Shown here: positions 8,452 to 59,642 of the stretch, in pieces | Position numbering within the stretch: position 1 is the first letter of the stretch | Layout: the number at the start of each line of letters is the position of its first letter | Assembly: GCA_964639285.1 (NCBI GenBank) | Contig: CAZXCI010000001.1 | Coordinates: 219,757-283,756, forward strand | From: an uncultured Candidatus Saccharibacteria bacterium | Lineage (GTDB): Bacteria; Patescibacteriota; Minisyncoccia; Phycocordibacterales; XYD1-FULL-46-19 | Reading direction: 5' to 3' | Length of the DNA stretch: 64,000 nucleotides | Position numbers and translations under genes: made by a program | Notes under the pieces: model-generated | What the model saw: only the letters and a program-made list of their open reading frames with translations | What the model was told of the DNA's origin: nothing | The model's database searches: none

Positions 8452-9612
8452 CTAAGTTCCCCTGCCGACGGCTTCACTTATATTTTTATAACCATCTTTT
8501 TGGAGTAACTCAACTAAGCCTTGATTGATCTCGCTGATTAGCTGGGGTCCTTCGAAAATCATGCCGGTGATGAGTTGGAGAAGAGAAGCGCCAGCTTTTA
8601 TTTTGGTATAAGCGTCCTCGGCGCTTGCGATTCCCCCGCAACCGATGATAATTGGTCGTTCTGTTTCGGGGAGAAGCTTAATTTTGTTGTAAATATATTT
8701 GATTTGCATATTAGCCAACTCTTCGACGATCTTGCCGGAGAGGCCACCTTTATCGGTGGGCAGAACGTCCTTGATTTTTGCTTGGAAGTTGGGGAGGGTT
8801 CTATCCTTGGTTAAATTAGTGCAGATAAAGCCGTTAACTTTATATTCTTGAGCTATTTTGATAATTTCATCTAATTTTTCTTCGCTTAAGTCTGGTGGTA
8901 ATTTAAGAAAAAGAGGTTTAGCCTTGCCCGAGGCTAGTCCTCGGGCAAGGGCGGAGAGTAATAAAGTAAGACGCTCTGGTTCAACAAATGGCTCTCCGCC
9001 AAAAGTGTTGGGGCAACTGATGTTGATGGTATAATAATCGCCAACCCCAGCTTCGATAAATTTTTGATACGCGAAGAGATAGTCAGACACTCCTTCTTCG
9101 GTCGTGATCGTTTGTTGGTCGTTGGTCTTGGCCAGGCTAACGCCCACGGGGAAATTTGAGCGGAGGAGGCTTCCTAATCTCTTGGCCACCTCTTCTGCTC
9201 CATTATTTTTTAATCCATAGTAGACAATGAGGCTCCGCGACTTTGGCAGACGCCAAAGTCGCGGTCTCTCGTTTCCCGCACAAGGTTGGCCTGTGACCGA
9301 ACCAATTTCGGTAAAACCGAAACCGACTGACGGCATAATTTTTGTCATCTCGCCATTTTTATCAAAGCCGGCCGCGAGTCCTAACGGATTTTTAAATTTG
9401 ATCCCGAGAATTTCTTGCTCGAGAACTGGGTTCTCATAAAAAAACAAGATTTTTGTTAGCCACCGGGTGGCTGATATCGAGCCCAAGAATTTCCCGATAC
9501 TTATGAACCAGTCATGAACATTCTCTGGGTCAAAGTGAAAAAAAATCGGTTTCAACACCCAGCGGTATTTCCAACGAATAATTTTGTTTCTAAATTTTAT
9601 CCAATTTTCCAT
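8452..9612 (-). CDS. pyrD: Dihydroorotate dehydrogenase, class 2
   Basis: FKNPLGLAAGFDKNG, INISCPNT and IIGCGGI...GASLLQL motifs. Confidence 0.8.
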   Translation of the reverse strand: MENWIKFRNKIIRWKYRWVLKPIFFHFDPENVHDWFISIGKFLGSISATRWLTKILFFYENPVLEQEILGIKFKNPLGLAAGFDKNGEMTKIMPSVGFGFTEIGSVTGQPCAGNERPRLWRLPKSRSLIVYYGLKNNGAEEVAKRLGSLLRSNFPVGVSLAKTNDQQTITTEEGVSDYLFAYQKFIEAGVGDYYTINISCPNTFGGEPFVEPERLTLLLSALARGLASGKAKPLFLKLPPDLSEEKLDEIIKIAQEYKVNGFICTNLTKDRTLPNFQAKIKDVLPTDKGGLSGKIVEELANMQIKYIYNKIKLLPETERPIIIGCGGIASAEDAYTKIKAGASLLQLITGMIFEGPQLISEINQGLVELLQKDGYKNISEAVGRGT

Positions 9613-11378: not shown

Positions 11379-11451
11379 GTTTCGAGGTTGGATCTGGCCC
11401 CCACTTCGCTAAAGCTATGAGGGGCAGGTATGCGAGATCCAACCTCGAAAG

Positions 11452-13392
11452 CTATGATTTTGTTTCTGCGTCTCTTACATTACCTTCGTCGGAGTCGGAA
11501 GGGCTGGCATTGTCAGCGGGCTTCGCCTCGCTGGAGCCTTCGGCGGAAGCGGGGGCGGATTGGGCCTTCATTAATGCTTCTCCAATTTTTTGCATTTCGG
11601 CAGAGAGGGCGGCGGTCGCTGTTTTAATCGCCTCAATATCCTCGCCATCCTTTACGCCCTTGAGAGCAGTAATTTTGTCTTCGACTCCCCTTTTGATTTC
11701 TTCGGGAACTTTTTTCTCACCTTCGGGTACGCCATCGGCATCTTTCAAACTTTTTTCGGCAGTATAAATTAATTGATCAGCCATGTTGCGAGTTTCAATT
11801 ACCTCGCGCTTTTTCTTGTCTTCTTCGGCGTGAAGTTCGGCATCTTTTTTCATCTTTTCAATATCTTCTTTAGAAAGACTAGTCTTGGCTTCAATGCGAA
11901 TTGATTGTTCTTTGTTTGTCGCTTTATCCTTAGCTTTGACCGACAATATACCGTTGGCATCAAGGTCGAAGGTAACTTCAACCTGAGGCAAACCCCTTGG
12001 TGATGGCGGGATGCCGTCTAAGATGAAGCGGCCAAGTGTTTTGTTATCAGTTACTAGTTCTCGTTCGCCTTGGACGATATGAATTTCAACAGATGTTTGA
12101 TTGTCGGCGGCGGTCGAGAAAATTTGTGACCGCGAGGTAGGGATTGTCGTGTTGCGTTCAATAATTTTTGTAGCAACTCCACCCATTGTTTCGATACCGA
12201 GAGAAAGTGGGGTGACATCGAGGAGCAGGACATCTTTTACGTCTCCGGCAAAAATTCCTCCTTGGATGGCCGCTCCAATAGCTACGACCTCGTCGGGGTT
12301 AATTGAACGGTTTGGCTCTTTGCCGAAGAGGGTTTTTACGGCTTCTTGTATCGCCGGCATACGAGTCTGGCCCCCAACCATGATAATCTCATTAATATCG
12401 CCTACTGCGAGCCCAGAGGCTGTCATAGCACGCTTGGTGATCTCAATCGACTTATCGATAAACTCACGGGCAAGATCCTCTAATGTTGCCCGAGTCATGC
12501 TCATATTGAGGTGGACAGGGCCAGAGGCATCGGAGGTAATAAATGGGATGTTGATCTCGGTTTGATTCATTGTTGAGAGTTCATGTTTGGCTTTCTCGGC
12601 GGCTTCTTTCAAGCGTTGAAGGGCGAGTTCGTCTTTGGTGATATCAATACCATTTTGCTTTTTGAACTCATTACCAATCCAGGCAATGATTTTTTGATCA
12701 ATGTCTTCTCCACCCATATGTGAGTCACCATCGGTAGATTTAACGGAGATACTTTGCTCCTCCTCGCCCCCAATGATTTCGAGAACTGAGACGTCGAAAG
12801 TTCCTCCGCCAAAATCGTAGACAACAACCTTTTCGTCTTTTTTCTTATCAAGACCATAAGCCAAAGCGGCGGCTGTCGGTTCGTTGATAATTCGACGAAC
12901 CTTAAAGCCGGCAATTTCGCCAGCATCTTTTGTTGCCTTGCGTTGAGAGTCGTCGAAGTAGGCGGGCACCGTGATAACAGCCTCTTCAATCTTTTCCCCA
13001 AGCTTGGCCTCAGCATCGTGTTTTAATTTTTGGAGAATTTGAGCCGAGATTTCTTCTGGTCGGAAGTTTTTGTCTCCCATTTTGACCTGGACACCACCGT
13101 CTGATGACTGCTCCATGGTGAAGGAAACAAGCCCCTTATCTTTTTGGATATTGGGATCGTTGAATTTGTGACCCATTAAGCGCTTCACACCAAAAATTGT
13201 GTTCTTTGGGTTAGTGATAGCTTGGCGTTTAGCCAATTGACCCACTAAGCGCTCACCCGCTTTAGAAGTTGCCACAATCGATGGGGTCGTGCGCATACCC
13301 TCGACGTTTTCGACGATACGAGGAGAACCGCCCTCAACAACAGCCATCGCTGAGTTTGCTGTACCTAGATCAATTCCTAAAATTTTTGCCAT
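11452..13392 (-). CDS. dnaK: Chaperone DnaK (Hsp70)
   Basis: [18 protein letters not shown]..., full-length Hsp70. Confidence 0.95.
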
Positions 13393-13978: not shown

Positions 13979-14050
13979 ATTTTAGTGATTTTTAAGAATT
14001 GTTGACTTTTCTTATTCTTGATAATAACAAAAATATTATTTTAATCAATA

Positions 14051-14088
14051 TGTGCGATATCCAATCTCGCACAATAAGGATATTTTAG
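14051..14088. repeat. REP-like palindrome tgtgcga-tatccaatc-tcgcaca plus a conserved tail ataaggatattttag
   Basis: Same unit, with the loop flipped, at 49101-49138; flanks the RAYT gene. Confidence 0.7.
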
Positions 14089-14769
14089 CTATTCTATCCA
14101 CAGATTTGTATAGTTTATAGAGCTGGCTTCTTTTAACCATTCACCTATTTCTTTTTCAAGTTCTTGGGGTGATCTGAGGTAGTCAATTAGTTGATCTTTG
14201 TCTATAATGCTGGCAAAATTGTTGTAGCCTAAGTAATCGCGAAGACTCGACCATTCGTATGATTTTAAGAAGTCTAAAAGACGACTTTTGTCTACAATTT
14301 CTTTTTCTTTCCAGCGGGCTTCAATAAGTTCGGCAGGATTAAAATGGATGTAAAAAGGAATATAATTTAATTGTTCTTCGTTTTCAATTCTAACAAATTT
14401 GTATTTACCTTGGAACAAAGTTCCTGATCTTTCGTTTTTAATATTGAAATAGTGAGTATAGCCAATCCCGATTTTTTTCATAAATTCCGAAGCCCCGTCT
14501 TTGACCAACGGTTTAATTAGGAGGTGGTAATGGTTAGGCATTAAAACAAAAGCCAGGATCTCTACAAGTTTTTCTCGTTGATCTTCTGTTTTTGTGCGAG
14601 ATTGGATATCGCACAAACGATCAATATTTTTTGTTTGATTGACGTCGTTAAAATAATAAAGACAAGCCAAAAAACGACGCCTATCATTGTCGCAACTAAA
14701 TATCTCCCGTTTATCTACCCCGCGGTTGTAGATGTGGTAAATATAGTCCTCCGTCGGCTTTTCTCTCAT
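14089..14769 (-). mobile_element. REP-associated tyrosine transposase (RAYT), an IS200-like Y1 HUH transposase
   Basis: HUH motif LMPNHYHLLI and catalytic Tyr motif FYIHFNP; flanked on both sides by REP palindromes. Confidence 0.75.
14593..14615. repeat. REP palindrome copy (tgtgcga-gattggata-tcgcaca) inside the RAYT coding sequence, translated as ...DRLCDIQSRTK...
   Basis: Identical 7-nt stems and the same 9-nt loop as the uvrC copy. Confidence 0.6.
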
Positions 14770-14800
14770 GTTGTGGATATCTTACCATAAAAACCTTTAT

Positions 14801-14850
14801 TGTGCGATATCCAACCTGCCCGAAATGCCTAGGCAGGCGGGTCTCGCACA
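14801..14850. repeat. REP palindrome (tgtgcga...tcgcaca) carrying a nested 27-nt GC-rich element (cctgcccgaaatgcctaggcaggcggg) in its loop
   Basis: REP stems at 14801-14807 and 14844-14850; the nested element at 14815-14841 belongs to the cctgcc/ggcagg family. Confidence 0.6.
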
Positions 14851-14860
14851 ATCACAAATA

Positions 14861-24599: not shown

Positions 24600-25754
24600 T
24601 TAGGCAATCACTCCTCCACCAAGGCAGATATCTTTGTCGTAGAGGACAAGTGATTGACCGGGGACAGCCAATTGGGGCTTCTCGAAAATGATTTGGGCTG
24701 TTCCCTTTTTACTATCGATATTTTTAATCCGGCATTTCTGGAGAGGTTGGCGATAGCGAACCCTAGATTCTAGCTGGCAGCTTTTACCTGCCTGCGCAGG
24801 CAGGGCTGGCAGCTTAAGAGGGTCAGAAATCCAATTGGTTTTTTCTAGCTGAACTTCTAATCTCTCGGCTCTTATCGAATAAGGTTTATCTGAGACAGTA
24901 AGTGTATTCTTTTTCACATCTTTGGCAATAATATAATAAGGCTTCTCATCTGGGGATTTGGTTGTGATTTCGAAGCCATGGCGTTCTCCCAGGGTGAAGA
25001 AGGTTGCGCCATCATGACAGCCAATAACTTTTCCTTGTTCGTCTAAGATGTTTCCTTTTTTTTCTTTTATCTCACGTTTAAGAAAATCTTTAAAATCAAT
25101 CTCACCGACGAAACAGAGTCCTTGGCTATCTTTCTTCAGAGCGGTAGGTAAATTAAATTTTTTCGCTAAAGCGCGGACTTCTGGCTTAGTATATTTACCG
25201 ATAGGAAACAAGATTTTAGGCAATTGTTCAGACTTGAGGTTCCAGAGAAAATAAGTTTGGTCTTTGTTTAGATCTTTTGAAACTTTTAAAACAAGCCCCT
25301 TTCGAGGTGAGACCTCGGGCTCACTTGAGGACTCACCTCGGGAAACCGGTACTTGAGAAATTTGTGAGTAATGCCCCGTCGCAACAAAGTCGGCGCCGTG
25401 GGTCATGGCCCAATCATAGAAGACGCCGAATTTGATGTGTTTGTTGCACATTACATCGGGGTTGGGAGTTCGTCCAGCTTTATATTCAGCGATAAAATAA
25501 TCAACTACTCTCTTCTTGTATTCTCGACTCAAATCTAAAGTTAGGAGGGGGATATCAAGATGAGCTGCAACTCGCCTGGCCCAGCGACGTTCCTCTCTCC
25601 AGCTACAAAAGTCGGCGGATTTACCCTGAGCAAAGTTGAAGGGCTCCCACACCCTAATAAAAACGCCGACAACATCATAACCCGCCTTCTTCAACAAAGC
25701 AGCCGAAACCGAGCTATCGACCCCTCCGCTCATTCCAACAAAAACTTTTTTCAT
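24600..25754 (-). CDS. mnmA: tRNA-specific 2-thiouridylase MnmA
   Basis: PP-loop SGGVDSSV; carries two short GC-rich in-frame insertions (see findings). Confidence 0.85.
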   Translation of the reverse strand: MKKVFVGMSGGVDSSVSAALLKKAGYDVVGVFIRVWEPFNFAQGKSADFCSWREERRWARRVAAHLDIPLLTLDLSREYKKRVVDYFIAEYKAGRTPNPDVMCNKHIKFGVFYDWAMTHGADFVATGHYSQISQVPVSRGESSSEPEVSPRKGLVLKVSKDLNKDQTYFLWNLKSEQLPKILFPIGKYTKPEVRALAKKFNLPTALKKDSQGLCFVGEIDFKDFLKREIKEKKGNILDEQGKVIGCHDGATFFTLGERHGFEITTKSPDEKPYYIIAKDVKKNTLTVSDKPYSIRAERLEVQLEKTNWISDPLKLPALPAQAGKSCQLESRVRYRQPLQKCRIKNIDSKKGTAQIIFEKPQLAVPGQSLVLYDKDICLGGGVIA

Positions 25755-42402: not shown

Positions 42403-42485
42403 AAGTTTTGATTTTAAAGATGTTAAGTAATAATTTAAAATCTTAAGTAATACCGTGCTCGCACTGCGAAGCTTCAGCGAAGCAG

Positions 42486-42559
42486 TGGACCGCACCGGGA
42501 TCGAACCGGTTACCTCCCGCTTGCAAAGCGGGTGCTCTAGCCAGATGAGCTAGCGGCCC
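42486..42559 (-). tRNA. tRNA-Ala (anticodon TGC)
   Basis: Cloverleaf GGGCCGC...CCCGC-TTTGCAA-GCGGG...TTCGATC...GCGGTCC-A; Ala-identity G3:U70 pair present. Confidence 0.85.
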
Positions 42560-42605
42560 AACAATCGTAATTAAACCAAATTTTGGGGTAAAAAGGAAGG
42601 AAAAG

Positions 42606-43836: not shown

Positions 43837-43906
43837 GAGCCCCCCCCTATCAAGAATCCCGCAAAGGGCGACATCAATGAAAGATGCCGCCCTTTATTTA
43901 TATTTG

Positions 43907-43979
43907 TGGACCATACCGGAATCGAACCGGTCACCTCTCCCATGCCATGGGAGCGCTCTACCAAATGAGCTAATGGCCC
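43907..43979 (-). tRNA. tRNA-Ala (anticodon GGC)
   Basis: GGGCCAT...CTCCC-ATGGCAT-GGGAG...TTCGATT...ATGGTCC-A; G3:U70 present. Confidence 0.85.
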
Positions 43980-47145: not shown

Positions 47146-48216
47146 TTATACTTTTTTCTGATGTAAAGGTAAAGAGAAGGAAAAAGAGGTTCCTTGATTG
47201 CCCACTGACAAATCTCCACTAGAGCGATTCTCAAACCAGATAGCTCCATGGTGCTTCTCGATGATATCTCGGGCAATGAAGAGGCCCAGGCCAGAGCCAT
47301 CGGGCTCGCTTTTTATCGCATTAGACGCTCTAAAGAATTTTTGGAAGACTTTCTCAGACTCACTCGACGGAATACCGATCCCCGAATCAGTGACAATCAC
47401 TTCAAGAGCCCCCTCGGCACTATTTACTCGCTCATCAGAGATCCTAATCGTGACTTTGCCTCCCTCCGGTGTATATTTAATGGCGTTATCGATAAGGTTC
47501 TCGATGACCATCCGAATTTTATCATCATCTATTTCTACTTTGGGAATAGTATTTTGGGGTCGGAGAAAGAGGAAATTAATCTTCTTTAATGCCGCTTGAC
47601 TAGTAAATTCAAAAATGACATTAGAAATAAGCTTAACTAAGTCAGTTGGCTGGAAGTGATAATCAACCCGCTCGGCATCCATTGAGTCCACTTTGAGCAA
47701 ATCATTGACAATAGAGATTACTCGCTCAGTACTAACCAAACCTTGGAGTAGGTATTTCTTCTGTTCATCTGTCACGGCACCAAGTTGGCCCTTCGCCGCC
47801 ATATCAAGAGTCCACTTAACTGCCGCCAGTGGTGTTCTCAATTGATGAGTCGTTACAGAAATAAATTTTGATTTCGCTTCTTCTAGAGATTGGAGTTTCC
47901 TATTAGCTAAAGTTAGGCCCAATTCTTTAGAATAGAGTTCGCGGTTTTTCTCTTCGAGCTCATTGTTGACCTTCTCTAATTCCTTAATCTGCTGAGTCTT
48001 AAGATTTGCTTCATTAATGAGAATCTTGAGGCGACTTTCTTTGCTTTGAGAAAAACGTCCCAGATAAAAAACCAGTAAGCCAAAAATAATTAGCAAAATC
48101 CAAAAAGCTGGAATAGAGACAAAAGAGAAATCTAATAAAGATTCTACCACCCTTATATTATAGCAACCGCCCGCGTAATTTTCTATGGTAAAACAGTGCA
48201 AAACGGTGAGCTTCAC
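47146..48216 (-). CDS. Sensor histidine kinase (GTG start; overlaps the 3' end of uvrC)
   Basis: H-box HQLRTPLAAVK, HATPase_c motifs (N and G boxes), N-terminal transmembrane helix. Confidence 0.75.
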   Translation of the reverse strand: MKLTVLHCFTIENYAGGCYNIRVVESLLDFSFVSIPAFWILLIIFGLLVFYLGRFSQSKESRLKILINEANLKTQQIKELEKVNNELEEKNRELYSKELGLTLANRKLQSLEEAKSKFISVTTHQLRTPLAAVKWTLDMAAKGQLGAVTDEQKKYLLQGLVSTERVISIVNDLLKVDSMDAERVDYHFQPTDLVKLISNVIFEFTSQAALKKINFLFLRPQNTIPKVEIDDDKIRMVIENLIDNAIKYTPEGGKVTIRISDERVNSAEGALEVIVTDSGIGIPSSESEKVFQKFFRASNAIKSEPDGSGLGLFIARDIIEKHHGAIWFENRSSGDLSVGNQGTSFSFSLPLHQKKV

Positions 48217-49528
48217 TATTGGCCAGAATTATGGCTTTGCGATAATCGCGAATAATCGCCGAGTCACCGATTAATTTCCCCACTTTATGTCTGTCGTTTT
48301 TAGTCACGGCAATGATCTGTGCTCTGTTTAGCGCCGTGCGATTTCTCACAACAGAATCGGCCACATTAACTTGCACCTGATTCCCATCAACCACAATAAC
48401 ATCGGGGTAAGGCCACTCCGTGTGAGCCAAGCGACGTTCGAGAATCTCGCGCAAATTAGCGAGGTCATCAACTTGTTTGGCTTTTGATCCTTTTAGTTTA
48501 AACTTTTTGTATTTACTCTTATCCATTTCGCCGTCTTGCCAGACAACCATCGCCCCCGCAGTATTCGTTCCCGAGAGATGGGCAATGTCATAGGCTTCAA
48601 TCCGAATTGAATGAGTCATAATTTGCGTCCGAGGTCTCTCCTCTGGTGAGTTCGAGGTGAGTCCTCGGGCCCCTTTGAGCAGCGACACATCTCGAATATG
48701 ATTCAAAGCGAAGATTTGATCACGAACTTGCCCCGCTTTTTCGAACTCTCGCTTCTTTGACAAGTTCTTCATCTCTTTTTCCAAACTCTTCAAAATTTCT
48801 TGTTTTTTACCAGAAAAAAGAAGTTTAATGTTTCGCACAATTTTCCGATAATCCGTCTTAGAAATTTCCCCCGTGCAGACACCGGGACAAAGTCCGATCT
48901 GGCGATTGAAACAAGAACGACACCGGTCGCGAGGAGAGACCTCGGCCTGCCCGCAATGCTTTGTAACGCAAGGCAGGCGGGGCTCACTTGAGGACTCACC
49001 TCCCGATCTGCAGGGCAAGCATTTATCCCGAAACGGGAAAATTTTACGAATAATCTTCAGCGCCTCTTTAATTTCACTCGCATAAGGAAACGGCCCAAAT
49101 TGTGCGAGATTGGATATCGCACAATAAGGATATTTTAGTTCTTGGCCACGGACAAGGAGGACACGGGGGAAGTCTTCGTCAGTAATAATGACATACCAAT
49201 AGCTCTTGTCATCTTTTTCTCGCGAATTATATTTGGGTTGATGCTTCTTAATCAATTCGGTCTCCAACAATAGCGCTTCTAAGACAGAATCTGTCTCCTG
49301 CCACTCTACCTTATCCGCAATCTCAACCATACGCCAAATCTTGGGTCCTCTCTTCGCCACGCCGGAGCCTTCGGCGAAGGCTGGGCCAATATCACCAACA
49401 AAATAACTCCGCACTCGATCCTTGAGCGAAGTCGCTTTGCCGACGTAGAGGAGACTTTTCCCCCGTTTGAAGAAATAAACCCCTGGCTTATCTGGCAATT
49501 TATATTTTTTTACATCTTGACTATTCAT
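48158..49528 (-). CDS. uvrC: Excinuclease ABC subunit C, short form lacking the C-terminal (HhH)2 domain and carrying in-frame repeat insertions
   Basis: GIY-YIG motif VYFFKRGKSLLYVGKATSLKDRVRSYF and a C-terminal endonuclease-like domain. Confidence 0.8.
   Translation of the reverse strand: MNSQDVKKYKLPDKPGVYFFKRGKSLLYVGKATSLKDRVRSYFVGDIGPAFAEGSGVAKRGPKIWRMVEIADKVEWQETDSVLEALLLETELIKKHQPKYNSREKDDKSYWYVIITDEDFPRVLLVRGQELKYPYCAISNLAQFGPFPYASEIKEALKIIRKIFPFRDKCLPCRSGGESSSEPRLPCVTKHCGQAEVSPRDRCRSCFNRQIGLCPGVCTGEISKTDYRKIVRNIKLLFSGKKQEILKSLEKEMKNLSKKREFEKAGQVRDQIFALNHIRDVSLLKGARGLTSNSPEERPRTQIMTHSIRIEAYDIAHLSGTNTAGAMVVWQDGEMDKSKYKKFKLKGSKAKQVDDLANLREILERRLAHTEWPYPDVIVVDGNQVQVNVADSVVRNRTALNRAQIIAVTKNDRHKVGKLIGDSAIIRDYRKAIILANSEAHRFALFYHRKLRGRLL
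48931..49003. repeat. Composite GC-rich mini-element inside uvrC: a 36-nt cctgcc...ggcagg element nested within a copy of the 42-nt element also present in mnmA
   Basis: ggctcacttgaggactcacctc is shared with 25321-25342; the 36-nt insert is in-frame (translated RLPCVTKHCGQA). Confidence 0.65.
49101..49138. repeat. REP unit (tgtgcga-gattggata-tcgcaca plus tail ataaggatattttag) inside uvrC, translated in-frame
   Basis: Same unit as the RAYT-flanking REP at 14051-14088, with the loop inverted. Confidence 0.7.
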
Positions 49529-49549: not shown

Positions 49550-52177
49550 TTATTTTTTTCTCAACGCCCTTTTGAGATACTTCGCCGTGAAAGAGCCCGG
49601 GGCGTAGGCCACTTCCTCAGGTGTCCCTTTGGCCACCAAGTCACCGCCCCCAAGACCGCCATCCGGACCCATGTCAATAATATAATCAGCACATTTGATC
49701 ACCTCCATATTGTGCTCGATCACCACCACGGTATTCCCCTTCTCTACTAATTTCTGCAAAATATTATTCAAATTTTTCACATCTTCATAGTGCAGACCAA
49801 TCGTCGGTTCATCGAGAATATAAATTGTTCGCTCGGTATGCGGACGATAAAGTTCGGAAGAGATCTTCACCCGTTGCGCTTCACCGCCCGACAAGTCGGT
49901 CGCTGATTGACCAAGTTCGAGATAACCCAGACCCACATCATTAAGAGTTTTGAGTCGATCATAAATGGCTGGGATATCGTTGAAGAACCCTAAAGCTTCT
50001 TCAATCGTCATATGGAGAATCTGACTAATATTTTCCTTTTTATATTGTACCTCGAGCGTATCTTTCTCATAACGAGTGCCTAAACATAAGTCACAAGGAA
50101 CATAGATGGTTGGCAGGAAATGCATCTCTACCGCCACTTCGCCATTACCCCGACAAGCCTCACAACGCCCGCCCTGCACGTTGAAGGAAAAGCGCGAAGC
50201 CTTCCATCCTCTGGCTCGAGCGAGAGCTGTCTCAGCCAAGAGTTCACGAATGAAGGTGAACGCGCCGGTATAAGTGGCTGGATTCGAGCGTGGCGTTCGA
50301 CCAATCGGTGATTGATCAATCATCACGACGCGACTAAGATATTCGCTCCCTGAGAATTCTCGGCAATTAAATAATTCATTTGTGCGATAACGTCGCTCCA
50401 GTCGCGCCTGCAAATTTTTAAACAAAATTTCGTAAACCAAAGATGATTTACCCGAACCTGATACCCCCGTGATCGCCACAAGTTTCCCTAGAGGAATATC
50501 AACATTAAGATTTTTAATATTGAAGATTTGGCCTCCCCGAATTTTGATTGTCCCCTTATCTTTGCTCCGGCGATTCTCGGGGACGGGGATTTCTTTGTCC
50601 CCGCGCAAATAATCAACAGTTAGAGAATTATGATCATTTTTCTTCGAAGTCAGGAGTTTGTCTGTCTCACCCGCCACCACAATTTCTCCACCATGAACAC
50701 CGGCTCCCGGCCCAATATCCACAAGATAGTCGGAGGCAAAAATTGTGTCTTCGTCATGTTCAACGACGACAATAGAATTACCAAGATCGCGCAATTCGAG
50801 CAAGGTTTTTATCAAGCGATCATTGTCACGGGCATGCAAACCAATTGTCGGCTCATCGAGTACATAGAGAGTCCCCACCAAGCGTGAACCAAGCTGAGAC
50901 GCCAAACGTATACGTTGAGCTTCACCACCAGAGAGAGTGTCCGCCCGACGATTAAGAGCAATATAATCCAAACCAACATCATTTAAGAACTTCAGGCGAG
51001 CGCCAATCTCTTTAGTCAGAACTTCAGAAATCGCTTTATCCTTAGGTGATAATTTAAGAGTGTCAAAAAATTTCTTAGCTTCGCCAATGGATAAAGCGAC
51101 GAGGTCGACAATATTTTCATTAAAAATTTTCACTTCGAGGGCTTCGGGGCGAAGCCTGGCCCCCAAACAAGTCTCACAGACTTCGTTACCCCACATATGC
51201 TTGGTTCCCAAACCATGACAAGCGGGACAAGCCCCATAAGGAGAATTGAAGGAGAAGAGGCGAGGCTCAATCTCGGGGAAAGAGAAACCGTCATGGGGGC
51301 AAGCAAATTTTGACGACAAGAGGGAAGTCTCCCCTCCGATGATAATCTTAATTAAACCGTCAGATTCTTTGAGCGCTCGCTCCACCCCCTCGGTTAAGCG
51401 TTCGTTAGCTGAGTCAAATTTAGCAATGGCAACAATCTTGCTAAGTTCGCCCCGCGTAGCTTTAGCGGAGTGGGGCTTCGCGATAAAATCGGACAAGTTT
51501 ATCTCATCCACTACTACATCAATATCGTGTTTCTTGGTTTTAGTGAGAATTATTCTTTCGCGTAATTTATATTTTTTATTATCAATCAAAACTTCTGAAT
51601 AACCCTTCTCAATCAGATCATAGAGAAGTTGATAATATTCACCTTTTCTCCCTTTCACTACCGGCGCCAGCAATGTGACTGAGGTAAAGGCAGAGAGAGA
51701 TCGTTTTTCGCGTAGCAAAATGGGGTCTCGCGGAGCTTCTTCTATTTTATTTTTTACAAAATTCACAATCTCCTCATGTGAAAGTTTTTCGATCCGTGTT
51801 CCACAGACAGGGCAATAGGGCTGACCAATTCGAGCATATAGCACCCGTAGATAATCATAAATCTCGGTAATAGTAGCAACAGTTGAACGTGGATTATGTG
51901 ATCGTGACTTCTGATCAATGGAGATGGCGGGCGAGAGACCGGTAATCTCATCGACGTCAGGCTTAGGTAATTGCTTCAAAAATTGACGAGCGTAAGCTGA
52001 GAGCGATTCCACATAACGACGTTGGCCCTCGGCAAAAATTGTGTCAAAAGCGAGGCTAGACTTGCCCGAACCCGAAAGACCAGTAAAAACCACCAACTTA
52101 TTGCGTGGTATTTCTAAACTCACATTCTTGAGATTATGAGTCCGAGCCCCCTTAATTTTGATTTTTTGTTCTTCCAC
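49550..52177 (-). CDS. uvrA: Excinuclease ABC subunit A (GTG start)
   Basis: [10 protein letters not shown]...[23 protein letters not shown]; two ABC ATPase modules. Confidence 0.9.
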
Positions 52178-52264
52178 CCCGTTAGAAATAGATCGCGATC
52201 TATGAATAAATAATAATCTCTTTAGACTCTCTCGTTAGCCATCGCGGTTTCTAACGGGATTCAT
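52178..52264 (-). repeat. Inverted-repeat leader element, copy B; abuts the uvrA start codon
   Basis: CCCGTTAGAAATAGATCGCGATC...CGCGGTTTCTAACGGGATTCAT. Confidence 0.7.
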
Positions 52265-55048: not shown

Positions 55049-57208
55049 TTATTGATTGCTTTTCTCCAACTCACGAATCTCGTCACGGAGGATGGCAGCG
55101 GTTTCGAAGTCGAGATTCTTGACTGCTTCGGACATTTGTTTATTTTTTTCTTTAATCAATTTCTTATAACCCTTCTTATCAAGATCAAGCGTCTCAATCG
55201 CCAGCAAATTGGCCACCGCCTTATGACGATCCCCAGCAATCGAGTCAGTAATGTCATGAATTTTCTTAGAAATAGAAATGGGGGTGATTTTGTGTTTTTT
55301 GTTATAAGCCAGCTGGATAGTGCGACGACGATTGGTCTCATCAATCGCCTTCTTCATTGAGCCAGTCACAACATCAGCATAAAGAATTACTCGCCCAGCC
55401 AAATTACGAGCCGCCCGACCGATAGTCTGAATTAAGGAAACTTCAGAACGCAAAAACCCCTCCTTATCAGCATCAAGAATCCCGATGAAAGAGACCTCGG
55501 GCAAGTCCAAGCCCTCACGCAAGAGGTTCACTCCCACCAAGCAGTCAAAAGTTCCTCGACGAAATTCGGTGAGAATCTTAATGCGCTCCAAGGTCTTAAC
55601 CTCACTGTGGAGATACTCCGACTTCACCCCCTCGTTCTTGAGATACTCGGCGAGATCCTCGGCCATCTTCTTGGTGAGAGTGGTGGCAATCACGCGATGA
55701 CCACTTTTAATTTCTTTTTGTGCTTCTACTATAAAATCTTTTATCTGGCCATCGTAAGCCCGGCAGTTTGAAGTCGTATCTCGCGTAGCCAGATCCGACT
55801 TCGAACTGCCAGATCCGAGGACTTTCTGAGAAGCAGAGTTCTTCTTCGGAGTTATTCTTGAAATTATGGGCCTAATTTTGACCATTGGATCAATCAACCC
55901 AGTCGGACGGATAATTTGTTCGACAACGCCCTTTCCTTCACTTTTTTCAAGTTCATACTCACCTGGTGTGGCACTGGTATAGATAACTTGACCAACCCGT
56001 TCTTCAAATTCGGGGAACCTAAGGGGGCGATTATCAAGCGCGGAGGGAAGACGAAAACCATACTCAACTAAATTCTTCTTGCGACTCTCATCACCAGCAA
56101 ACATCCCCCGAATTTGTGGTACCGCCACATGCGATTCATCAATAATGGTCAAAAAGTCAGCGACCTTCTTCGCATGAGAACCTGTCCCGAGCGTAGTCGA
56201 GGGGAAGTAGTCAAGCAAAGTCGCTGGCGCCTCCCCCTTCTTCCGCCCCGTTAGGTGACGCGAATAATTCTCAATTCCATTGCAATAACCCACCTCCTTA
56301 ATCATCGCGAGGTCATAATTGGTTCGTCTTTTTAATCTCTCGGCCTCAAGCAACTTCCCCTCTTTATTTAATTCCTTCAATCTCGTCTCAAGCTCTAATT
56401 TTATAGATTTTATCGCGCGATCACGGTCTTCTTGACTAGTGATGAAGTGCTTGGCCGGATAAATATAGGTTTCTCGGGGCGTACTAATGATCCGCCGGGA
56501 AATAGAATCAACGATCAAAATTTCACCAACTCTACTTGCCCCGTCATGAGAGGAGTCAGCCACCATTTTCAAATTCACAATCTCACGGCTACCCGGCAAC
56601 ATAATCTCGATGGAGTTACCAATCGCGCGGAAGGTGCCCGGAGTTAAGTCAGCATTTGTTCGTTCAAAATAAACATTGATTAATTTCTCAATAATTTCCT
56701 GACGCGTATATTTGTCACCCACCAAGAGACGCACGAAGCTCTTGGCATATTCCTCCGGACTCCCTAAGCCATAAATACACGAAACCGAAGCGACAATAAT
56801 CACATCACGCCGAGTAAGCAAGGCCTCGGTGGAAGCATAGCGCAAACGCTCAATTTCTTCGTTAATGCTGGCGTCCTTCTCGATATAAGTATCAGAGTGA
56901 GCAATATAGGCTTCGGGTTGATAATAATCGTAATAAGAGACAAAATAATGCACGGCCGCATCAGGGAAAAAATCGCGATACTCTTGGGCCAATTGGGCCG
57001 CCAAGGTCTTGTTGTGAGCGATTACCAGGGTTGGCTTATTGTGCTCGGCAATCACATTGGCCATGGTGAAGGTCTTGCCCGAGCCCGTCACACCCAACAA
57101 GGTCTGATGCTTGAGACCTTCCTTAAGCCCCTTAACCAGCGCCTCAATCGCTCGTGGTTGGTCACCAGCTGGGGCAAACTTAGATTGTAATTTAAAAATC
57201 TTGGCCAT
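55049..57208 (-). CDS. uvrB: Excinuclease ABC subunit B
   Basis: GVTGSGKTFTMANVI, helicase motifs, C-terminal UVR domain; possible insertion of about 35 aa around 55762-55820. Confidence 0.9.
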   Translation of the reverse strand: MAKIFKLQSKFAPAGDQPRAIEALVKGLKEGLKHQTLLGVTGSGKTFTMANVIAEHNKPTLVIAHNKTLAAQLAQEYRDFFPDAAVHYFVSYYDYYQPEAYIAHSDTYIEKDASINEEIERLRYASTEALLTRRDVIIVASVSCIYGLGSPEEYAKSFVRLLVGDKYTRQEIIEKLINVYFERTNADLTPGTFRAIGNSIEIMLPGSREIVNLKMVADSSHDGASRVGEILIVDSISRRIISTPRETYIYPAKHFITSQEDRDRAIKSIKLELETRLKELNKEGKLLEAERLKRRTNYDLAMIKEVGYCNGIENYSRHLTGRKKGEAPATLLDYFPSTTLGTGSHAKKVADFLTIIDESHVAVPQIRGMFAGDESRKKNLVEYGFRLPSALDNRPLRFPEFEERVGQVIYTSATPGEYELEKSEGKGVVEQIIRPTGLIDPMVKIRPIISRITPKKNSASQKVLGSGSSKSDLATRDTTSNCRAYDGQIKDFIVEAQKEIKSGHRVIATTLTKKMAEDLAEYLKNEGVKSEYLHSEVKTLERIKILTEFRRGTFDCLVGVNLLREGLDLPEVSFIGILDADKEGFLRSEVSLIQTIGRAARNLAGRVILYADVVTGSMKKAIDETNRRRTIQLAYNKKHKITPISISKKIHDITDSIAGDRHKAVANLLAIETLDLDKKGYKKLIKEKNKQMSEAVKNLDFETAAILRDEIRELEKSNQ

Positions 57209-58475
57209 TGATAATTTTTTCTCTAATGTTATTAGTCAAATGGATTAGAAAATAGAGATTATGAACTGAGGCAAGTGTGCCGGCCAACATTTCCTTAGCG
57301 CGGAAGAGGTGGGCCAAGTAAGCGCGAGTGTAATGCTTACAAACATAACAACCGCAACCTTCCTCAATCGGAGTAAAATCTTCTTTATATTGAGCATTCA
57401 AGATATTTAGACGGCCATTTTTTGTAATTAACGTACCATTCCTAGCCATGCGGGTAGGAGTGACACAATCGAAAGTGTCGGCTCCATTTTTAATCCCCTC
57501 CACGATATCTTCAGATTCGCCAATGCCTAATAAATGTCTTGGTTTGTCTTCGGGCAAAAGAGCGGAGACCCAACCCACCGCTGTCCCCATGTCTTCTTTA
57601 TTAAAGGAGCCCCCAATGCCGAAGCCGTCGAAGTCCATTGCTCCAATCACCCTTGCCGATTCTTCTCGCAAATCTTGATGTCGCCCACCCTGAACAATGC
57701 CAAATAAGGCGGGTTGCGAAGAAGGTAAGAAGTCCCTATCAAAAACGTCTGGCCGAGCATCGCGAGGAGATCCGAGGACTTTTTGAGAGGGAGCTTCTTC
57801 CTTCTGAAGCAAACGTTTATGTTCAGCCAAACTTCTCTCCGCCCAACGGTGAGTTCTCTCCATCGCTTGCTTCTGATAATCATAGTCAGCAGAAGGTGAC
57901 GTGCATTCATCAAAAGCAAAAATAATATCCGCTCCCAAATTATGCTGAATCTGCATCGAACGTTCAGGGGTGAAGCGATGCTCACTCCCATCAATATGTG
58001 ATTTGAAAGTTACCCCTTCCTCATCAATCTTCGCCAGCTTGACAATAGGCTCACGATCGGAGTCTTCTTCGGCCTGCCCGCCTAAGTTTTGCTTAGCAAA
58101 ATTTTGGAGGGCAAATTTAGAAATCCCACCTTCACCGTATGCGGCCCCCAGAGAGAAAACTTGGAAACCGCCAGAGTCAGTCATCATTGGTCCGTGCCAA
58201 TTCATAAAATTATGCAGTCCACCCGCGCGAGCCACCAATTCATCGCCTGGTTGGAGATATAAGTGATAAGTGTTAGCGAGCACCACTTGCGCGCCAAGAT
58301 TATTGACCATCTCGGGCGTCAGAGCTTTAACTGTGGCCTTAGTTCCCACAGCAACAAAAGCCGGGGTCTGGATATCCCCGTGTGCCGTATGGATCACTCC
58401 GGCCCTGCCTGCGCAGGCAGGCCGGCCTAACTCACCTTTCATCTTCTTCTCAATTTTAAAACTAAAATCGCTCAC
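57192..58475 (-). CDS. tgt: Queuine tRNA-ribosyltransferase
   Basis: TPAFVAVGT and the zinc site CGCYVCKHYTRAYLAHLF; a GC-rich palindrome is translated in-frame near the N-terminus. Confidence 0.85.
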   Translation of the reverse strand: MSDFSFKIEKKMKGELGRPACAGRAGVIHTAHGDIQTPAFVAVGTKATVKALTPEMVNNLGAQVVLANTYHLYLQPGDELVARAGGLHNFMNWHGPMMTDSGGFQVFSLGAAYGEGGISKFALQNFAKQNLGGQAEEDSDREPIVKLAKIDEEGVTFKSHIDGSEHRFTPERSMQIQHNLGADIIFAFDECTSPSADYDYQKQAMERTHRWAERSLAEHKRLLQKEEAPSQKVLGSPRDARPDVFDRDFLPSSQPALFGIVQGGRHQDLREESARVIGAMDFDGFGIGGSFNKEDMGTAVGWVSALLPEDKPRHLLGIGESEDIVEGIKNGADTFDCVTPTRMARNGTLITKNGRLNILNAQYKEDFTPIEEGCGCYVCKHYTRAYLAHLFRAKEMLAGTLASVHNLYFLIHLTNNIREKIINGQDF

Positions 58476-58517: not shown

Positions 58518-59519
58518 TTATTTCACTAGGTTCACCGGTGTGCCGGAGGCAAAACTTCTGACATTCTCAAGGGTTGTATTAACGATACGCAGCATAGCCT
58601 CCCAAGTGTTGAAGGCGTTGTGCGGAGTGACAATAACATTGGGCATATCAACCAAAATGTGGTTTTGCAAGACCGTACGGAGATTGTGTTCACCCGAACT
58701 TGGGGTGGTGAGATAAGTAAATTCATCTTTAGTCACCCCCTCTTCTTCTAAGACATCAAGACCAGCTCCCGCCAAGTGTCCATCTTTAAGACTCTTGAGT
58801 AAAGCATCTGTCTCGACTAAAGCCCCGCGAGCCGTATTGATGAGGTAAGCCCCTTTCTTCATCTTGGCCAAAGTGTCAGCGTTGATGAGGTGATGATTCT
58901 CTTCCATATAGGGCACATGTAGAGTCACAATATCAGCTTGCGCCAAGACCTCATCGAAAGTTAGATATTGGTAATCAAATTTCGCCCGATAGGCCTCATC
59001 GGGGAATTTGTCATAAGCGATAACCTTCATGTTGAAGCCTTTAGCAATCTCAATCACGTTCTTGCCAATCTTGCCGGTGCCAATCACACCCAACGTTTTC
59101 CCATTCAGGTCAAAACCGCGCATCCCCTCGAGGCTAAAGCTTCCTGTCTCTCTAATCCGATCATAGCTAGCAAAAATCTTACGTGACAGGGTGAGCATCA
59201 GGGCAAAGGCGTATTCGGCCACCGTCTCCTCACCATAACTCGGGACATTAGCCACCACGACTCCGTGAGCTTTGCAAAGGTCAAGATCAATATGATCAAA
59301 ACCGGTCGAGCGTGTCGAAATCATTTTGAGCTTGGGAAAATGAACGAGAACTTTCTCATTAATTACTGAATTCACAAAAACAGAAAGGATCTCCGCATCA
59401 TTCTCGGTCGGCAGAGTGTCTTCGGTCAAAATTCCATCAAGAAGTTCTGTCTCAGACAAATTTTGTTCCTGCAAATACTCCTTTTCCCATTTTTCTAACT
59501 CAAAAAATATTGTTTTCAT
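58518..59519 (-). CDS. D-isomer-specific 2-hydroxyacid dehydrogenase (D-lactate dehydrogenase-like)
   Basis: GKTLGVIGTGKIG NAD-binding motif, catalytic region AYLINTARGALV...H. Confidence 0.8.
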   Translation of the reverse strand: MKTIFFELEKWEKEYLQEQNLSETELLDGILTEDTLPTENDAEILSVFVNSVINEKVLVHFPKLKMISTRSTGFDHIDLDLCKAHGVVVANVPSYGEETVAEYAFALMLTLSRKIFASYDRIRETGSFSLEGMRGFDLNGKTLGVIGTGKIGKNVIEIAKGFNMKVIAYDKFPDEAYRAKFDYQYLTFDEVLAQADIVTLHVPYMEENHHLINADTLAKMKKGAYLINTARGALVETDALLKSLKDGHLAGAGLDVLEEEGVTKDEFTYLTTPSSGEHNLRTVLQNHILVDMPNVIVTPHNAFNTWEAMLRIVNTTLENVRSFASGTPVNLVK

Positions 59520-59642
59520 CCCGTTAGAAACAGGTCGCGATCTTTAAATCACCACCCGTCATTATTTTATTATTTAATAATATCTTTAACATTTTAACTT
59601 TTATACACCATCCTAGCGATCGCGGTTTCTAACGGGATTCAT
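59520..59642 (-). repeat. Inverted-repeat leader element, copy C; abuts the start codon of the 2-hydroxyacid dehydrogenase gene
   Basis: CCCGTTAGAAACAGGTCGCGATC...GATCGCGGTTTCTAACGGGATTCAT. Confidence 0.7.

Follow-up and report, generated by a model that had tools for sequence, protein, structure and literature searches.

How did the same GC-rich DNA come to be read in the same frame within two unrelated genes? Two copies, and no more, of the 22-mer GGCTCACTTGAGGACTCACCTC are present in the 64-kb stretch of DNA analyzed here (the window), which comes from a tiny, uncultured bacterium of the Paceibacterota (CPR): one at 25318-25339 in mnmA and one at 48981-49002 in uvrC. Both host ORFs lie on the minus strand. 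An earlier reading of the letters alone (the sequence-only reading) had noticed both the sharing and the common frame. These observations hold, with the positions corrected by 1-3 nt from 25321-25342 and 48982-49003. The repeat encodes ...SRGESSSEPEVSPRK... in MnmA and ...GGESSSEPRLPCVTKHCGQAEVSPRD... in UvrC. The number of matches expected by chance is 0 and none was obtained in 100 shuffles; within the window, a search that allowed up to 3 mismatches returned no further copy. The two genes, and the hairpin elements of the family that we call F2, are the following.

24600-25754, minus strand: mnmA ORF, identified as MnmA by Pfam tRNA_Me_trans
25303-25340: F2 short form in mnmA, 38 nt long as a hairpin, of which 25304-25339 form the 36-nt core; it corresponds to MnmA residues 139-151 (RGESSSEPEVSPR)
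48158-49528, minus strand: uvrC ORF, identified as UvrC by GIY-YIG/UVR/UvrC_RNaseH
48930-49003: F2 composite in uvrC (hotspot C), core of 72 nt, encoding GGESSSEPRLPCVTKHCGQAEVSPR
48629-48668: third F2-type doublet, diverged and oppositely oriented, at hotspot D of uvrC, encoding ARGLTSNSPEERPR

A hairpin element in mnmA and uvrC

The mnmA hairpin possesses perfect 9-bp arms, CGAGGTGAG and CTCACCTCG, the inverted arms that the sequence-only reading had described, and folds with an energy of -25 to -29 kcal/mol (z = -3.3 to -4.6). Its core consists of two inverted GAGG-N5-CCTC modules (25304-25316 and 25327-25339) with a 10-nt spacer between them. Modules of this type were observed 9 times, compared with 0.8 expected. 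GAAGT-N5-ACTTC modules are absent from the window, and related families do occur in relatives. The conserved unit, first taken to be 42 nt, measures 36 nt (the core GAGG...CCTC) or 38-40 nt with its closing pairs, and in mnmA it contributes 13 codons, within the protein stretch ...VSRGESSSEPEVSPRKG....

The uvrC unit equals the mnmA element with exactly 36 nt, or 12 codons (RLPCVTKHCGQA), added between GACCTCGG and GCTCAC, and the frame is kept, precisely as had been proposed from the letters. The left module of this composite lies at 48931-48943 and the right module at 48990-49002, and between them, at 48946-48981, lies a 36-nt hairpin of another family, F3. The composite peptide, in the stretch ...GESSSEPRLPCVTKHCGQAEVSPR..., sits between the cysteines of a C-x2-C...C-x2-C motif. 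The doublet of hotspot D also has a 36-nt core, with modules at 48631-48643 and 48654-48666, and in orthologs this hotspot holds other F2 forms, namely RGESSSEPEVSPR in P0127 and the composite in P0128. The in-gene hairpins as a whole have strong folds, with z values of -3 to -4.6.

F2 is a dispersed DNA element

Alignment with orthologs, one of the checks proposed with the sequence-only reading, shows that the inserted segments are lineage-specific. The closest orthologs are empty at the F2 sites (P0002/L098 for mnmA and P0122/L099 for uvrC), as are many others. At the corresponding loops other lineages carry RGESSSEPEVSPR, RGETSGSLEDSPR, EERPRAHLRSHL or EVSPQVSPRSLL, and these peptides are the four open-frame translations of one F2, read in its two orientations. 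A wider search, also proposed at the outset, took the element beyond mnmA and uvrC. Outside the source genome it is present in at least five Paceibacterota/Vogelbacteria genomes, where it sits in other genes as well as between genes, occurs in either orientation and is read in four frames. F2 DNA was found in L001, L003, L004, L006, L009 and L011-L015, with two of the copies intergenic. Independently produced assemblies (JGI, ENA, NCBI, Logan), which differ in sample and pipeline, contain it.

A scan of 185,579 species genomes, a collection that does not contain the source genome of the window, revealed 7 true copies of the exact F2 core in 3 CPR genomes, with 2-3 copies per genome. F2 is therefore a low-copy family. 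The four non-CPR matches consist of the bare 19-mer only, and their number is near that expected by chance. Among the 12 catalogued copies, which include the composite in L009 and an intergenic composite at L001 13291, 10 are located in ORFs, compared with a coding fraction of about 0.88. The lengths are all multiples of three, as had been anticipated (36, 72 and 57 nt for the elements; 36, 27 and 21 nt for nested inserts), and the genic copies use stop-free frames only and leave the ORFs intact.

Comparison of F2 with its host genes shows where conservation resides. Between genomes the element is 0.97/0.95 identical, and its third positions are identical at 13/13 and 12/13 sites. The corresponding identities of the host genes are 0.72/0.71 overall and 0.47/0.51 at third positions, and their silent sites are saturated. 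F2 is a DNA element, not a peptide motif. That all copies occupy orthologous sites with flanks conserved like the element is contradicted by these data, and a peptide motif selected at the protein level was rejected because the F2 DNA is read in four frames. CRISPR repeats were rejected since there is no array, and an assembly artefact because the independent assemblies agree. An Rfam scan of the whole window at the gathering threshold detected two tRNA-Ala genes only, with no family for any hairpin. Viral contigs scanned for the F2 19-mer and for a 23-mer of a further hairpin family, F1, gave 0 matches, and a phage vector is therefore without support. The identity of F2 between genomes could also stem from gene conversion or structural selection, without recent transposition.

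In-gene copies and protein loops

In an AF2 model of MnmA, pLDDT drops below 50 exactly at residues 139-151, between two strands, and also at two peptides encoded by other hairpins (residues 40-50 and 316-324). The 139-151 segment is missing from solved MnmA structures, which are shorter at this site. The F2 peptide of MnmA is thus predicted to occupy a surface loop, the location that had been suggested for it from the letters. The in-gene copies are presumably translated as an extra loop peptide, to judge solely from the intact frames in essential genes.

Nested hairpins and their insertion sites

The window contains several hairpins besides F2, belonging to the F1 and F3 families and to one separate family. 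Since F1 copies surround a putative transposase gene, this gene is listed with them.

14050-14074: F1 hairpin, TGTGCGA-N9-TCGCACA, directly 3' of the Y1 gene
14089-14769, minus strand: gene for a RAYT-like Y1/HUH transposase of 226 aa, with rpsI and grpE on either side
14592-14616: F1 copy within the Y1 ORF, in frame, RLCDIQSRTK
14800-14851: F1 hairpin on the 5' side of the Y1 gene, interrupted in its loop by a 27-nt F3 at 14815-14841 (CCTGCCCGAAATGCCTAGGCAGGCGGG)
24787-24804: in mnmA, the short palindrome CCTGCCTGCGCAGGCAGG of the F3 type, which encodes PALPAQAGK (residues 316-324)
48946-48981: F3 hairpin CCTGCCCG...GGCAGGCGGG, 36 nt, within the central loop of the uvrC F2
49100-49124: in-frame F1 copy at hotspot B of uvrC, encoding YPYCAISNLAQ, 25/25 identical to 14592-14616
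49352-49385: hairpin of a separate GC-rich family, encoding FAEGSGVAK at hotspot A of uvrC; a dnaK segment, 11521-11554, is 85% identical to it
58404-58421: short F3-type palindrome CCTGCCTGCGCAGGCAGG in tgt, GRPACA, missing in the L004 and L006 orthologs

The hotspot A hairpin is missing in the L099, L004 and L006 orthologs. F3 copies occur within the loops of other hairpins: inside the F1 loop at 14815, inside the central loop of F2 at 48946 (uvrC) and in L001 and L003, and inside the loop of the left F2 module in L009. In L001 the F2/F3 composite is present in mnmA and in an intergenic spacer (13291); L003 carries it in uvrC, oriented the opposite way.

The ends of the elements were examined for traces of insertion and compared with MITEs of the Correia or ERIC kind, which have terminal inverted repeats and a direct target-site duplication of fixed length. 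No direct target-site duplication is visible at F2 or F3 ends, where the arms are inverted repeats, the F3 boundaries carry a 2-nt ambiguity and the pre-insertion loop sequences are strongly diverged. From codon alignments with empty-site orthologs no conserved tag, target motif or target-site duplication was definable, because for F2 the loop flanks are too diverged; the nested F3 alone could be placed. A GTAG or CGTC tag, or its complement, is absent in and beside F1, F2 and F3. The flanks around F2 are mutually complementary in a copy-specific manner (0.63 compared with 0.31; permutation p < 5e-5).

A Y1/HUH transposase gene among cognate hairpins

The Y1 gene is located about 10 kb upstream of the mnmA F2 within the window. 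Its product contains the HUH motif (N79-H80-x-H82) and Y140-I-H-x-N-P, and it matches Pfam PF01797 (Y1_Tnp) with 31.8 bits, above the cutoff of 23. The best NCBIfam match is REP_Tyr_transpos (NF047646) at 44.9 bits, below the cutoff of 80, and a PDB sequence search gave a marginal match only, to E. coli TnpA-REP (4er8, E = 0.29). There are 3675 homologs, and NHxH and YIHxNP are invariant among 28 Y1 sequences. The rpsI-grpE locus is fixed in 5 genomes, those of the window and 4 others.

The association of Y1 genes with hairpins is widespread. F1 is present on both sides of the gene in the window, L001, L100 and L102, and in the window and L001 the loop orientation of the flanking copies is equal on both sides. 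About 68 of 76 CPR Y1 loci have a word of at least 11 nt common to both flanks, and 36 of 77 have a perfect same-stem hairpin in both. The copy inside the Y1 ORF has equivalents in 14 of the 36 same-stem loci, and 13 of these are at aa 42-57. Cognate hairpins of the GAGG type (GAGG-N-CCTC) lie beside Y1 genes in L031, L036, L038, L041, L047 and L074, with three further copies in frame in neighboring ORFs of L038, and doublets built like F2 flank the Y1 genes of L051, L055, L061 and L064. A Y1 gene bounded by F2 itself was not found; the sole Y1 gene of the 64-kb window is bounded by F1, and a tblastn search of the window and of the 8-kb loci that bear F2 detected no second Y1 gene. Observations that weigh against a Y1 model include the F1 boundaries of the only Y1 gene in the window, the low copy number of F2 (classical REPINs reach hundreds), the lack of a definable tag, target motif or target-site duplication, the sub-threshold score with the RAYT model and the weak match to TnpA-REP.

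How the hairpins may have spread

We favor, with a probability of roughly 0.6, the interpretation that F2 is a non-autonomous hairpin repeat, copied into Paceibacterota genomes and tolerated in loops, with a Y1/HUH RAYT-type transposase as the most likely agent. Y1/HUH RAYT-type enzymes act on single-stranded DNA hairpins. According to this interpretation the F2 doublet would be copied to many sites, including the coding sequence of essential genes. Survival in a gene would require that whole codons be added, that one of the four stop-free frames be used and that the loop tolerate 12-25 extra residues, and surviving copies would become lineage-specific, translated loop peptides. F3 (CCTGCC...GGCAGGCGGG) would enter the single-stranded loops of other hairpins, which would produce the nested composite of uvrC. 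The enzyme may be the single-copy one at 14089-14769 or a paralogue encoded at another place in the genome, and the system as a whole would be of the REP/REPIN-RAYT kind, with repeats that enter genes. We infer from the arrangement of hairpins that F2 and F3 are moved by a Y1 enzyme and that hairpin loops or single-stranded DNA are the insertion target.

A different explanation, unlikely in our estimation but a serious one, holds that F2 was spread and homogenized without a dedicated transposase, by ectopic recombination or gene conversion and by template-switch (quasipalindrome) errors, and that the Y1 enzyme serves F1 only or has another role. The low copy number of F2 and the bounding of the Y1 gene by F1, not F2, are consistent with this. 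So are the copy-specific complementary flanks, which are what template-switch correction of quasipalindromes is expected to leave, and the repeated occupation of the same loops is explicable by selection alone. However, a copying step is needed to explain why several genomes have identical 36-nt cores at sites that are not homologous and in either orientation. Further, the nested inserts are clean and have constant ends (CCTGCCCG...GGCAGGCGGG) in three loop contexts, and other CPR lineages have similarly built GAGG hairpins and doublets beside Y1 genes and in frame in nearby ORFs. These features speak against a spread without a transposase.

It is improbable that the hairpins are kept for a function in place, such as mRNA stability or RNase sites, translational pausing or protein binding, so that their conservation would reflect selection and not mobility. 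Such a function would account for silent positions that are conserved in the element and saturated in the host gene, for the strong folds and for the fixed internal position of the Y1 ORF hairpin across very diverged lineages. It leaves unexplained how identical copies arrived in unrelated genes. Moreover, close orthologs of the same essential genes lack the hairpins, different lineages carry unrelated hairpin families at the same loops, either orientation is used, intergenic copies exist and there is no Rfam match.

We attach still less weight to the idea that the elements are untranslated, having been removed or skipped at the level of RNA or the ribosome by translational bypassing or as an excised mini-intron. 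This idea draws on the resemblance of GC-rich hairpins in an AT-richer genome to mitochondrial GC-cluster/byp elements. The restriction of genic copies to four stop-free frames and to multiples of three would be needless if they were removed, degenerated copies persist in orthologs as ordinary coding sequence, and neither a take-off/landing codon pattern nor a known ribozyme or intron family was found. Finally, nothing except the small copy number in the window speaks for coincidence, for an ancestral peptide motif common to both proteins or for an artefact of assembly, and these readings can be set aside given the absence of any 22-mer match in 100 shuffles, the recurrence of F2 in the JGI, ENA, NCBI and Logan assemblies and its reading in four frames and two orientations.

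Relation to known palindromic repeats

The sequence-only reading had likened these repeats to Rickettsia palindromic elements (RPEs). In one account (PMC10969869), the RPEs (RPE-1 to RPE-10; Ogata et al. 2000) are described as Rickettsia families of about 100-150 bp for which a transposase is not known. As with F2, they are hairpin repeats that lie in frame in unrelated housekeeping genes, at fold-compatible positions, and are read through. The presence of intergenic copies as well and the reduced genome are further likenesses. The RPE-like behavior of F2 (in frame, in loops, dispersed) is well supported, and the comparison is correct for behavior but not for membership. The F2 core is only 36 nt (72 nt in the composite), compared with about 100-150 bp for RPEs, and the hosts are Patescibacteria and not Alphaproteobacteria; published size and host thus set F2 apart from the RPE families, and a relation in sequence is not expected. 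In addition, a Y1/RAYT-type gene with cognate hairpins shares the window with F2, whereas RPEs have no known transposase, and the nesting of hairpins within loops is prominent in the F2/F3 system.

The Y1 gene and its cognate hairpins in the window point to a REP/REPIN-like system as a more precise frame than the RPEs (for REP/REPIN-RAYT systems see Nunvar 2010; Bertels & Rainey 2011, PMC3116915; Ton-Hoang 2012; bioRxiv 10.1101/119735). REP sequences are imperfect palindromes only 20-40 nt long, and their doublets, in which two inverted units form one long hairpin, correspond to the architecture of F2. Also shared is a single-copy, vertically inherited Y1/HUH gene between cognate palindromes, here F1, as at most of the 77 CPR loci. 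The known REP/REPINs, however, are extragenic by definition and number tens to hundreds of copies, whereas F2 has few copies per genome, and the share of them in coding sequence is roughly that expected from the coding fraction. The conserved GTAG or CGTC tetranucleotide at the end of REP palindromes (PMC3733652) is absent here. Unlike RAYT genes, the present Y1 gene holds its own hairpin in frame, and its product falls below the NCBIfam RAYT cutoff.

A Y1 HUH transposase is also a feature of IS200/IS605 elements and their miniature derivatives, the PATEs. Both ends of these elements carry subterminal hairpins on one strand, which the flanking F1 copies of equal loop orientation in the window and L001 resemble. 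The single-stranded 'peel and paste' movement of IS200/IS605, with its seamless excision, would fit the clean empty sites and the loop targets. In contrast to such elements, the Y1 gene described here is single-copy at a fixed rpsI-grpE locus in five genomes and so is not IS-like in mobility, TnpB is absent and no target tetranucleotide was identified. Yeast mitochondrial GC clusters and byp elements are likewise short GC-rich palindromes that invade the protein genes of an AT-richer compact genome and leave them intact. They differ in being organellar, in that some are bypassed at translation and in having no known association with an HUH transposase.

To our knowledge, in-frame palindromic repeats in housekeeping genes have been described almost only from Rickettsia, and the mobilizing enzyme is not known. 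RPE-type behavior is now seen in a second, very large radiation of reduced-genome bacteria, in elements that are much smaller than RPEs, have a REP/REPIN architecture and are found near a conserved HUH/Y1 gene with in-frame cognate hairpins. A full-text literature search of incomplete coverage returned nothing that links tyrosine transposases or in-frame palindromes with CPR/Patescibacteria. Because the hairpins lie near a conserved Y1 gene, the mechanism is directly testable with one small protein and three oligonucleotides.

We propose tentatively, as a conjecture with somewhat less than an even chance, that Paceibacterota, and probably much of the CPR, possess a REPIN-RAYT-type system that enters genes, in which a vertically inherited Y1 enzyme would move 20-40-nt hairpins and doublets into the single-stranded loops of hairpins and into other single-stranded DNA, giving nested 'Russian-doll' palindromes. 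Copies in frame in tolerant loops of essential proteins would be retained and translated, and the enzyme's own gene has its cognate hairpin in frame at a constant position. If so, such a system would be a major source of lineage-specific insertions in CPR proteins and would provide an enzymatic explanation, hitherto missing, for 'selfish DNA in protein-coding genes' of the RPE type. The hairpin inserts inflate and diversify CPR proteins and confuse alignments and domain models, and they could serve as fine-scale lineage markers. About a quarter of the medium-sized ortholog indels in the clade are such hairpins: a folding energy of -0.3 kcal/mol/nt or lower was reached by 27% of the 48 ortholog indels compared and by 3.4% of controls (Mann-Whitney p = 4e-6).

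Copies of the F2 hairpin in mnmA and uvrC

A search of the whole window located exactly two copies of the 22-mer GGCTCACTTGAGGACTCACCTC, which belongs to F2, the hairpin doublet under study. They lie at 25318-25339 and 48981-49002; no third match was found in the window even when 3 mismatches were allowed, and shuffles gave none. The sequence-only reading had reported this pair, which is borne out, at coordinates that were off by 1-3 nt. Both copies fall within minus-strand ORFs identified by Pfam as MnmA (24600-25754) and UvrC (48158-49528) and, as had been proposed, they are read in the same frame in the two genes, yielding SRGESSSEPEVSPRK and GGESSSEPRLPCVTKHCGQAEVSPRD. Two further F2 features were delimited.

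25303-25340, mnmA: F2 unit, a 38-nt hairpin with perfect 9-bp arms
48629-48668, uvrC: third F2 copy, diverged, in opposite orientation, with a 36-nt core

The 9-bp inverted arms described earlier for the mnmA unit are present and perfect, and on both strands this hairpin folds much better than shuffles. The uvrC unit consists of the mnmA element plus an insert of exactly 36 nt, the length previously reported, which is placed between GACCTCGG and GCTCAC and forms its own hairpin, CCTGCCCG...GGCAGGCGGG. The shared unit had been put at 42 nt; the conserved core instead measures 36 nt, from GAGG to CCTC, and is built of two inverted GAGG-N5-CCTC mini-hairpins with a 10-nt spacer between them. Nine GAGG-N5-CCTC modules are observed in the window, compared with 0.8 expected. 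The composite F2 in uvrC (48930-49003, residues ~176-200) lies between the cysteine pairs of the UvrC C-x2-C...C-x2-C motif and contributes two extra cysteines (RLPCVTKHCGQA); among orthologs the length here ranges from 0 to about 30 residues.

Dispersal of F2 as DNA

Ortholog alignments show empty sites in the closest relatives and in many further sequences: the mnmA segment is missing from P0002, P0005-7 and P0009, and the uvrC segment from P0122. These empty sites were confirmed by codon alignments with L098 and L099, two loci from other genomes, and the segments are lineage-specific. The composite F2 is found whole at three more places: the mnmA site of P0003/L001, a spacer between L001 genes and, in opposite orientation, another uvrC loop in a third genome (P0128/L003). 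When one genome from each of 185,579 species was scanned for the 19-nt core of F2, 7 complete two-armed copies were found in three Paceibacterota/Vogelbacteria genomes, together with 4 bare 19-mers in unrelated phyla, which is about the number expected by chance. F2 DNA is present beyond the two genes, in other ORFs and in intergenic DNA of related genomes, the scan copies being located in ORFs of 1193, 978 and 404 aa, in uvrC and in intergenic DNA. F2 is low-copy. Since an extra copy is present at L013 92-127 (SO_2017_GW1_141 genome), beyond the one by which this locus was retrieved, per-genome counts from exact words are lower bounds.

A peptide motif conserved in loops would be one explanation for the recurrence, and relatives do have the peptides RGESSSEPEVSPR, RGETSGSLEDSPR, EERPRAHLRSHL and EVSPQVSPRSLL at the same or other loops of MnmA and UvrC. 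Six-frame translation derives all four from a single DNA sequence, as its stop-free readings in the two orientations; the remaining two frames have stops and were never observed in a gene. Between genomes F2 shows 95-97% identity and its third codon positions agree at 25 of 26, whereas the host genes are 71-72% identical and their third positions 47-51%. This difference in identity therefore implies constraint or homogenisation acting on the nucleic acid. F2 is copied, dispersed DNA and not a peptide motif. As a whole, we regard F2 as a dispersed, in-frame, presumably translated hairpin element, with a probability of about 0.9; that it is translated is suggested by the intact frames in essential genes.

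Protein location and other hairpin families

An AlphaFold2 model of the window MnmA, built from 21 sequences (mean pLDDT 75), contains five segments with pLDDT below 50, of which three coincide with hairpin-derived peptides. In the model, segment 139-151 is exactly RGESSSEPEVSPR, between two beta-strands; 40-50 is NFAQGKSADF and 316-324 is PALPAQAGK, from the palindrome CCTGCCTGCGCAGGCAGG. Solved MnmA structures are shorter at these three places.

Window genes were also compared with syntenic orthologs in L001, L004 and L006, giving 48 non-redundant indels of 5-40 aa. These are GC-richer than controls (0.53 versus 0.43), and 27% of them reach a folding energy of -0.3 kcal/mol per nt or lower, compared with 3.4% of length-matched coding controls. 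In uvrC there are at least 4 hotspots, filled with different hairpins by different lineages. F2 is one of many such hairpin families. A 36-aa in-frame insert in uvrB (55754-55861) consists of two adjacent hairpins; one of them belongs to a family (SSKSDLATRDTTSNC) with further in-frame members in the orthologs of 2-hydroxyacid dehydrogenase from L004 and L006. Further GC-rich palindrome families, not placed in F1, F2 or F3, have members in the spacer downstream of dnaK and in uvrA, dnaK, uvrC and the dihydroorotate dehydrogenase gene.

11399-11425 and 51449-51475, GC-rich palindrome
11521-11554 and 49352-49385, GC-rich palindrome
8922-8950, GC-rich palindrome
9235-9264, GC-rich palindrome

Nesting and flanks

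In the 5' copy of F1, the hairpin flanking the Y1 transposase gene, the loop is interrupted by a 27-nt hairpin whose ends are identical to those of the 36-nt uvrC insert, and in L009 a 21-nt version of this nested type, F3, lies within the loop of the F2 left module. Hairpin loops of three kinds thus harbour F3, in every case at a size divisible by three (36, 27 and 21 nt), in keeping with the earlier claim of frame-preserving insertion.

For F2 no target motif and no direct duplication could be defined. The flanking sequences vary from copy to copy, and the two 7-nt stretches bordering the core are mutually complementary at 63% of positions; pairing flanks taken from different copies gives 31% (p < 5e-5). 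This complementarity fits either insertion into the loops of older hairpins or outward extension of the stem by template switching.

A Y1 transposase gene and its cognate hairpins

L001 carries a Pfam Y1_Tnp gene between rpsI and grpE, and its window ortholog (14089-14769) encodes a protein that exceeds the PF01797 cutoff and whose top NCBIfam match, which is sub-threshold, is the REP-associated tyrosine transposase. HUH and YIHxNP are invariant across the family, whose members number in the thousands and come mostly from Patescibacteria. Within the window's clade Y1 is 70-84% conserved, above mnmA or uvrC. Because five genomes have the gene at the same rpsI-grpE locus, it is single-copy and vertically inherited, like RAYTs (bioRxiv 10.1101/119735). 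F1 (TGTGCGA-N9-TCGCACA), a hairpin different from F2, stands on either side of the gene and also occurs as two in-frame copies.

14592-14616, F1 copy in frame within the Y1 ORF
49100-49124, F1 copy in frame in uvrC (YPYCAISNLAQ), a 25-mer identical to 14592-14616

Within the clade the uvrC copy tracks each lineage's own F1 variant, which suggests concerted evolution with the Y1-flank copies. At this loop the window has the F1 loop orientation YCAISNLAQ and the L001 lineage (P0137) the opposite one, CARLDIAQ, so that the loop has either been flipped or arisen by a separate insertion.

None of the Y1 genes found in the window and the other loci examined has F2 in its flanks, and the sole Y1 gene of the window goes with F1. 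Among 80 further Y1 loci taken from metagenomes, about 68 of 76 have a word of at least 11 nt in common between their two flanks, nearly always a short hairpin, and 36 of 77 pass a strict perfect-stem test for one and the same hairpin in the two flanks. Fourteen of these 36 have it in the ORF as well, in 13 cases at aa 42-57. The flank hairpins vary by lineage; in L031, L036, L038, L041, L047 and L074 they are GAGGT-NNN-ACCTC, which shares the build of the F2 modules. Seven loci have doublets in a flank, and in L051, L055, L061 and L064 these join a pair of inverted mini-hairpins across a spacer of 7-8 nt, the F2 architecture. In L038 the cognate GAGG-type hairpin is in frame at three places in neighbouring long ORFs, two of them with opposite loop orientations. 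That a Y1/RAYT-type enzyme moves F2 is a proposal to which we give even odds or slightly less. Internal copies in the Y1 ORF (window 14592-14616; L019, L024, L028, L045, L048, L051, L052, L055, L060, L064, L075, L077, L090 and L095) vary in sequence by lineage yet match the flank copies of their own lineage, a pattern suggestive of autoregulation or concerted evolution; L036, L041 and L047 have a second internal copy near aa 160.

Comparison with known systems

Rickettsia palindromic elements (RPEs) are in-frame, translated and loop-located in unrelated housekeeping genes (PMC10969869). The RPE-like behaviour that had been proposed for F2 is supported, as it is in frame, located in loops of unrelated housekeeping proteins and presumably translated; however, size, host and sequence families differ, so F2 is not an RPE. 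REP/REPIN-RAYT systems (short palindromes and an associated tyrosine transposase) are matched in architecture and in genomic surroundings: the palindromes are short, they form inverted doublets, and a Y1 gene present in one copy has its cognate hairpins on either side. Three defining traits of those systems are lacking here, namely an extragenic location of the repeats, a high copy number and the GTAG/CGTC tag, and the Y1 protein scores below the threshold of the curated RAYT model. The whole is best described as a CPR REP/RAYT-like system with hairpins inside genes, in frame. Full-text literature searches found no description of such in-gene hairpins in CPR. For the old RPE puzzle this offers a hypothesis of enzyme and substrate that can be tested, in one of the major radiations of bacteria.

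Other features of the window

A bipartite palindrome (CCCGTTAGAAA..GATCGCGATC ... ATCGCGGTTTCTAACGGGATTCAT) is common to 52172-52264 and 59514-59642, without an Rfam match. It sits right against the start codon in two genes, uvrA and that for 2-hydroxyacid dehydrogenase, and might serve both as a leader or operator. The window has two tRNA-Ala genes, with anticodons tgc and ggc (compare 42485-42600 and 43906-43979). The segment 43266-43341, in which neither ARAGORN nor Rfam called a tRNA, resembles their 3' half, has the same 39-nt downstream repeat and could represent what is left of a tRNA or the scar of a duplication.
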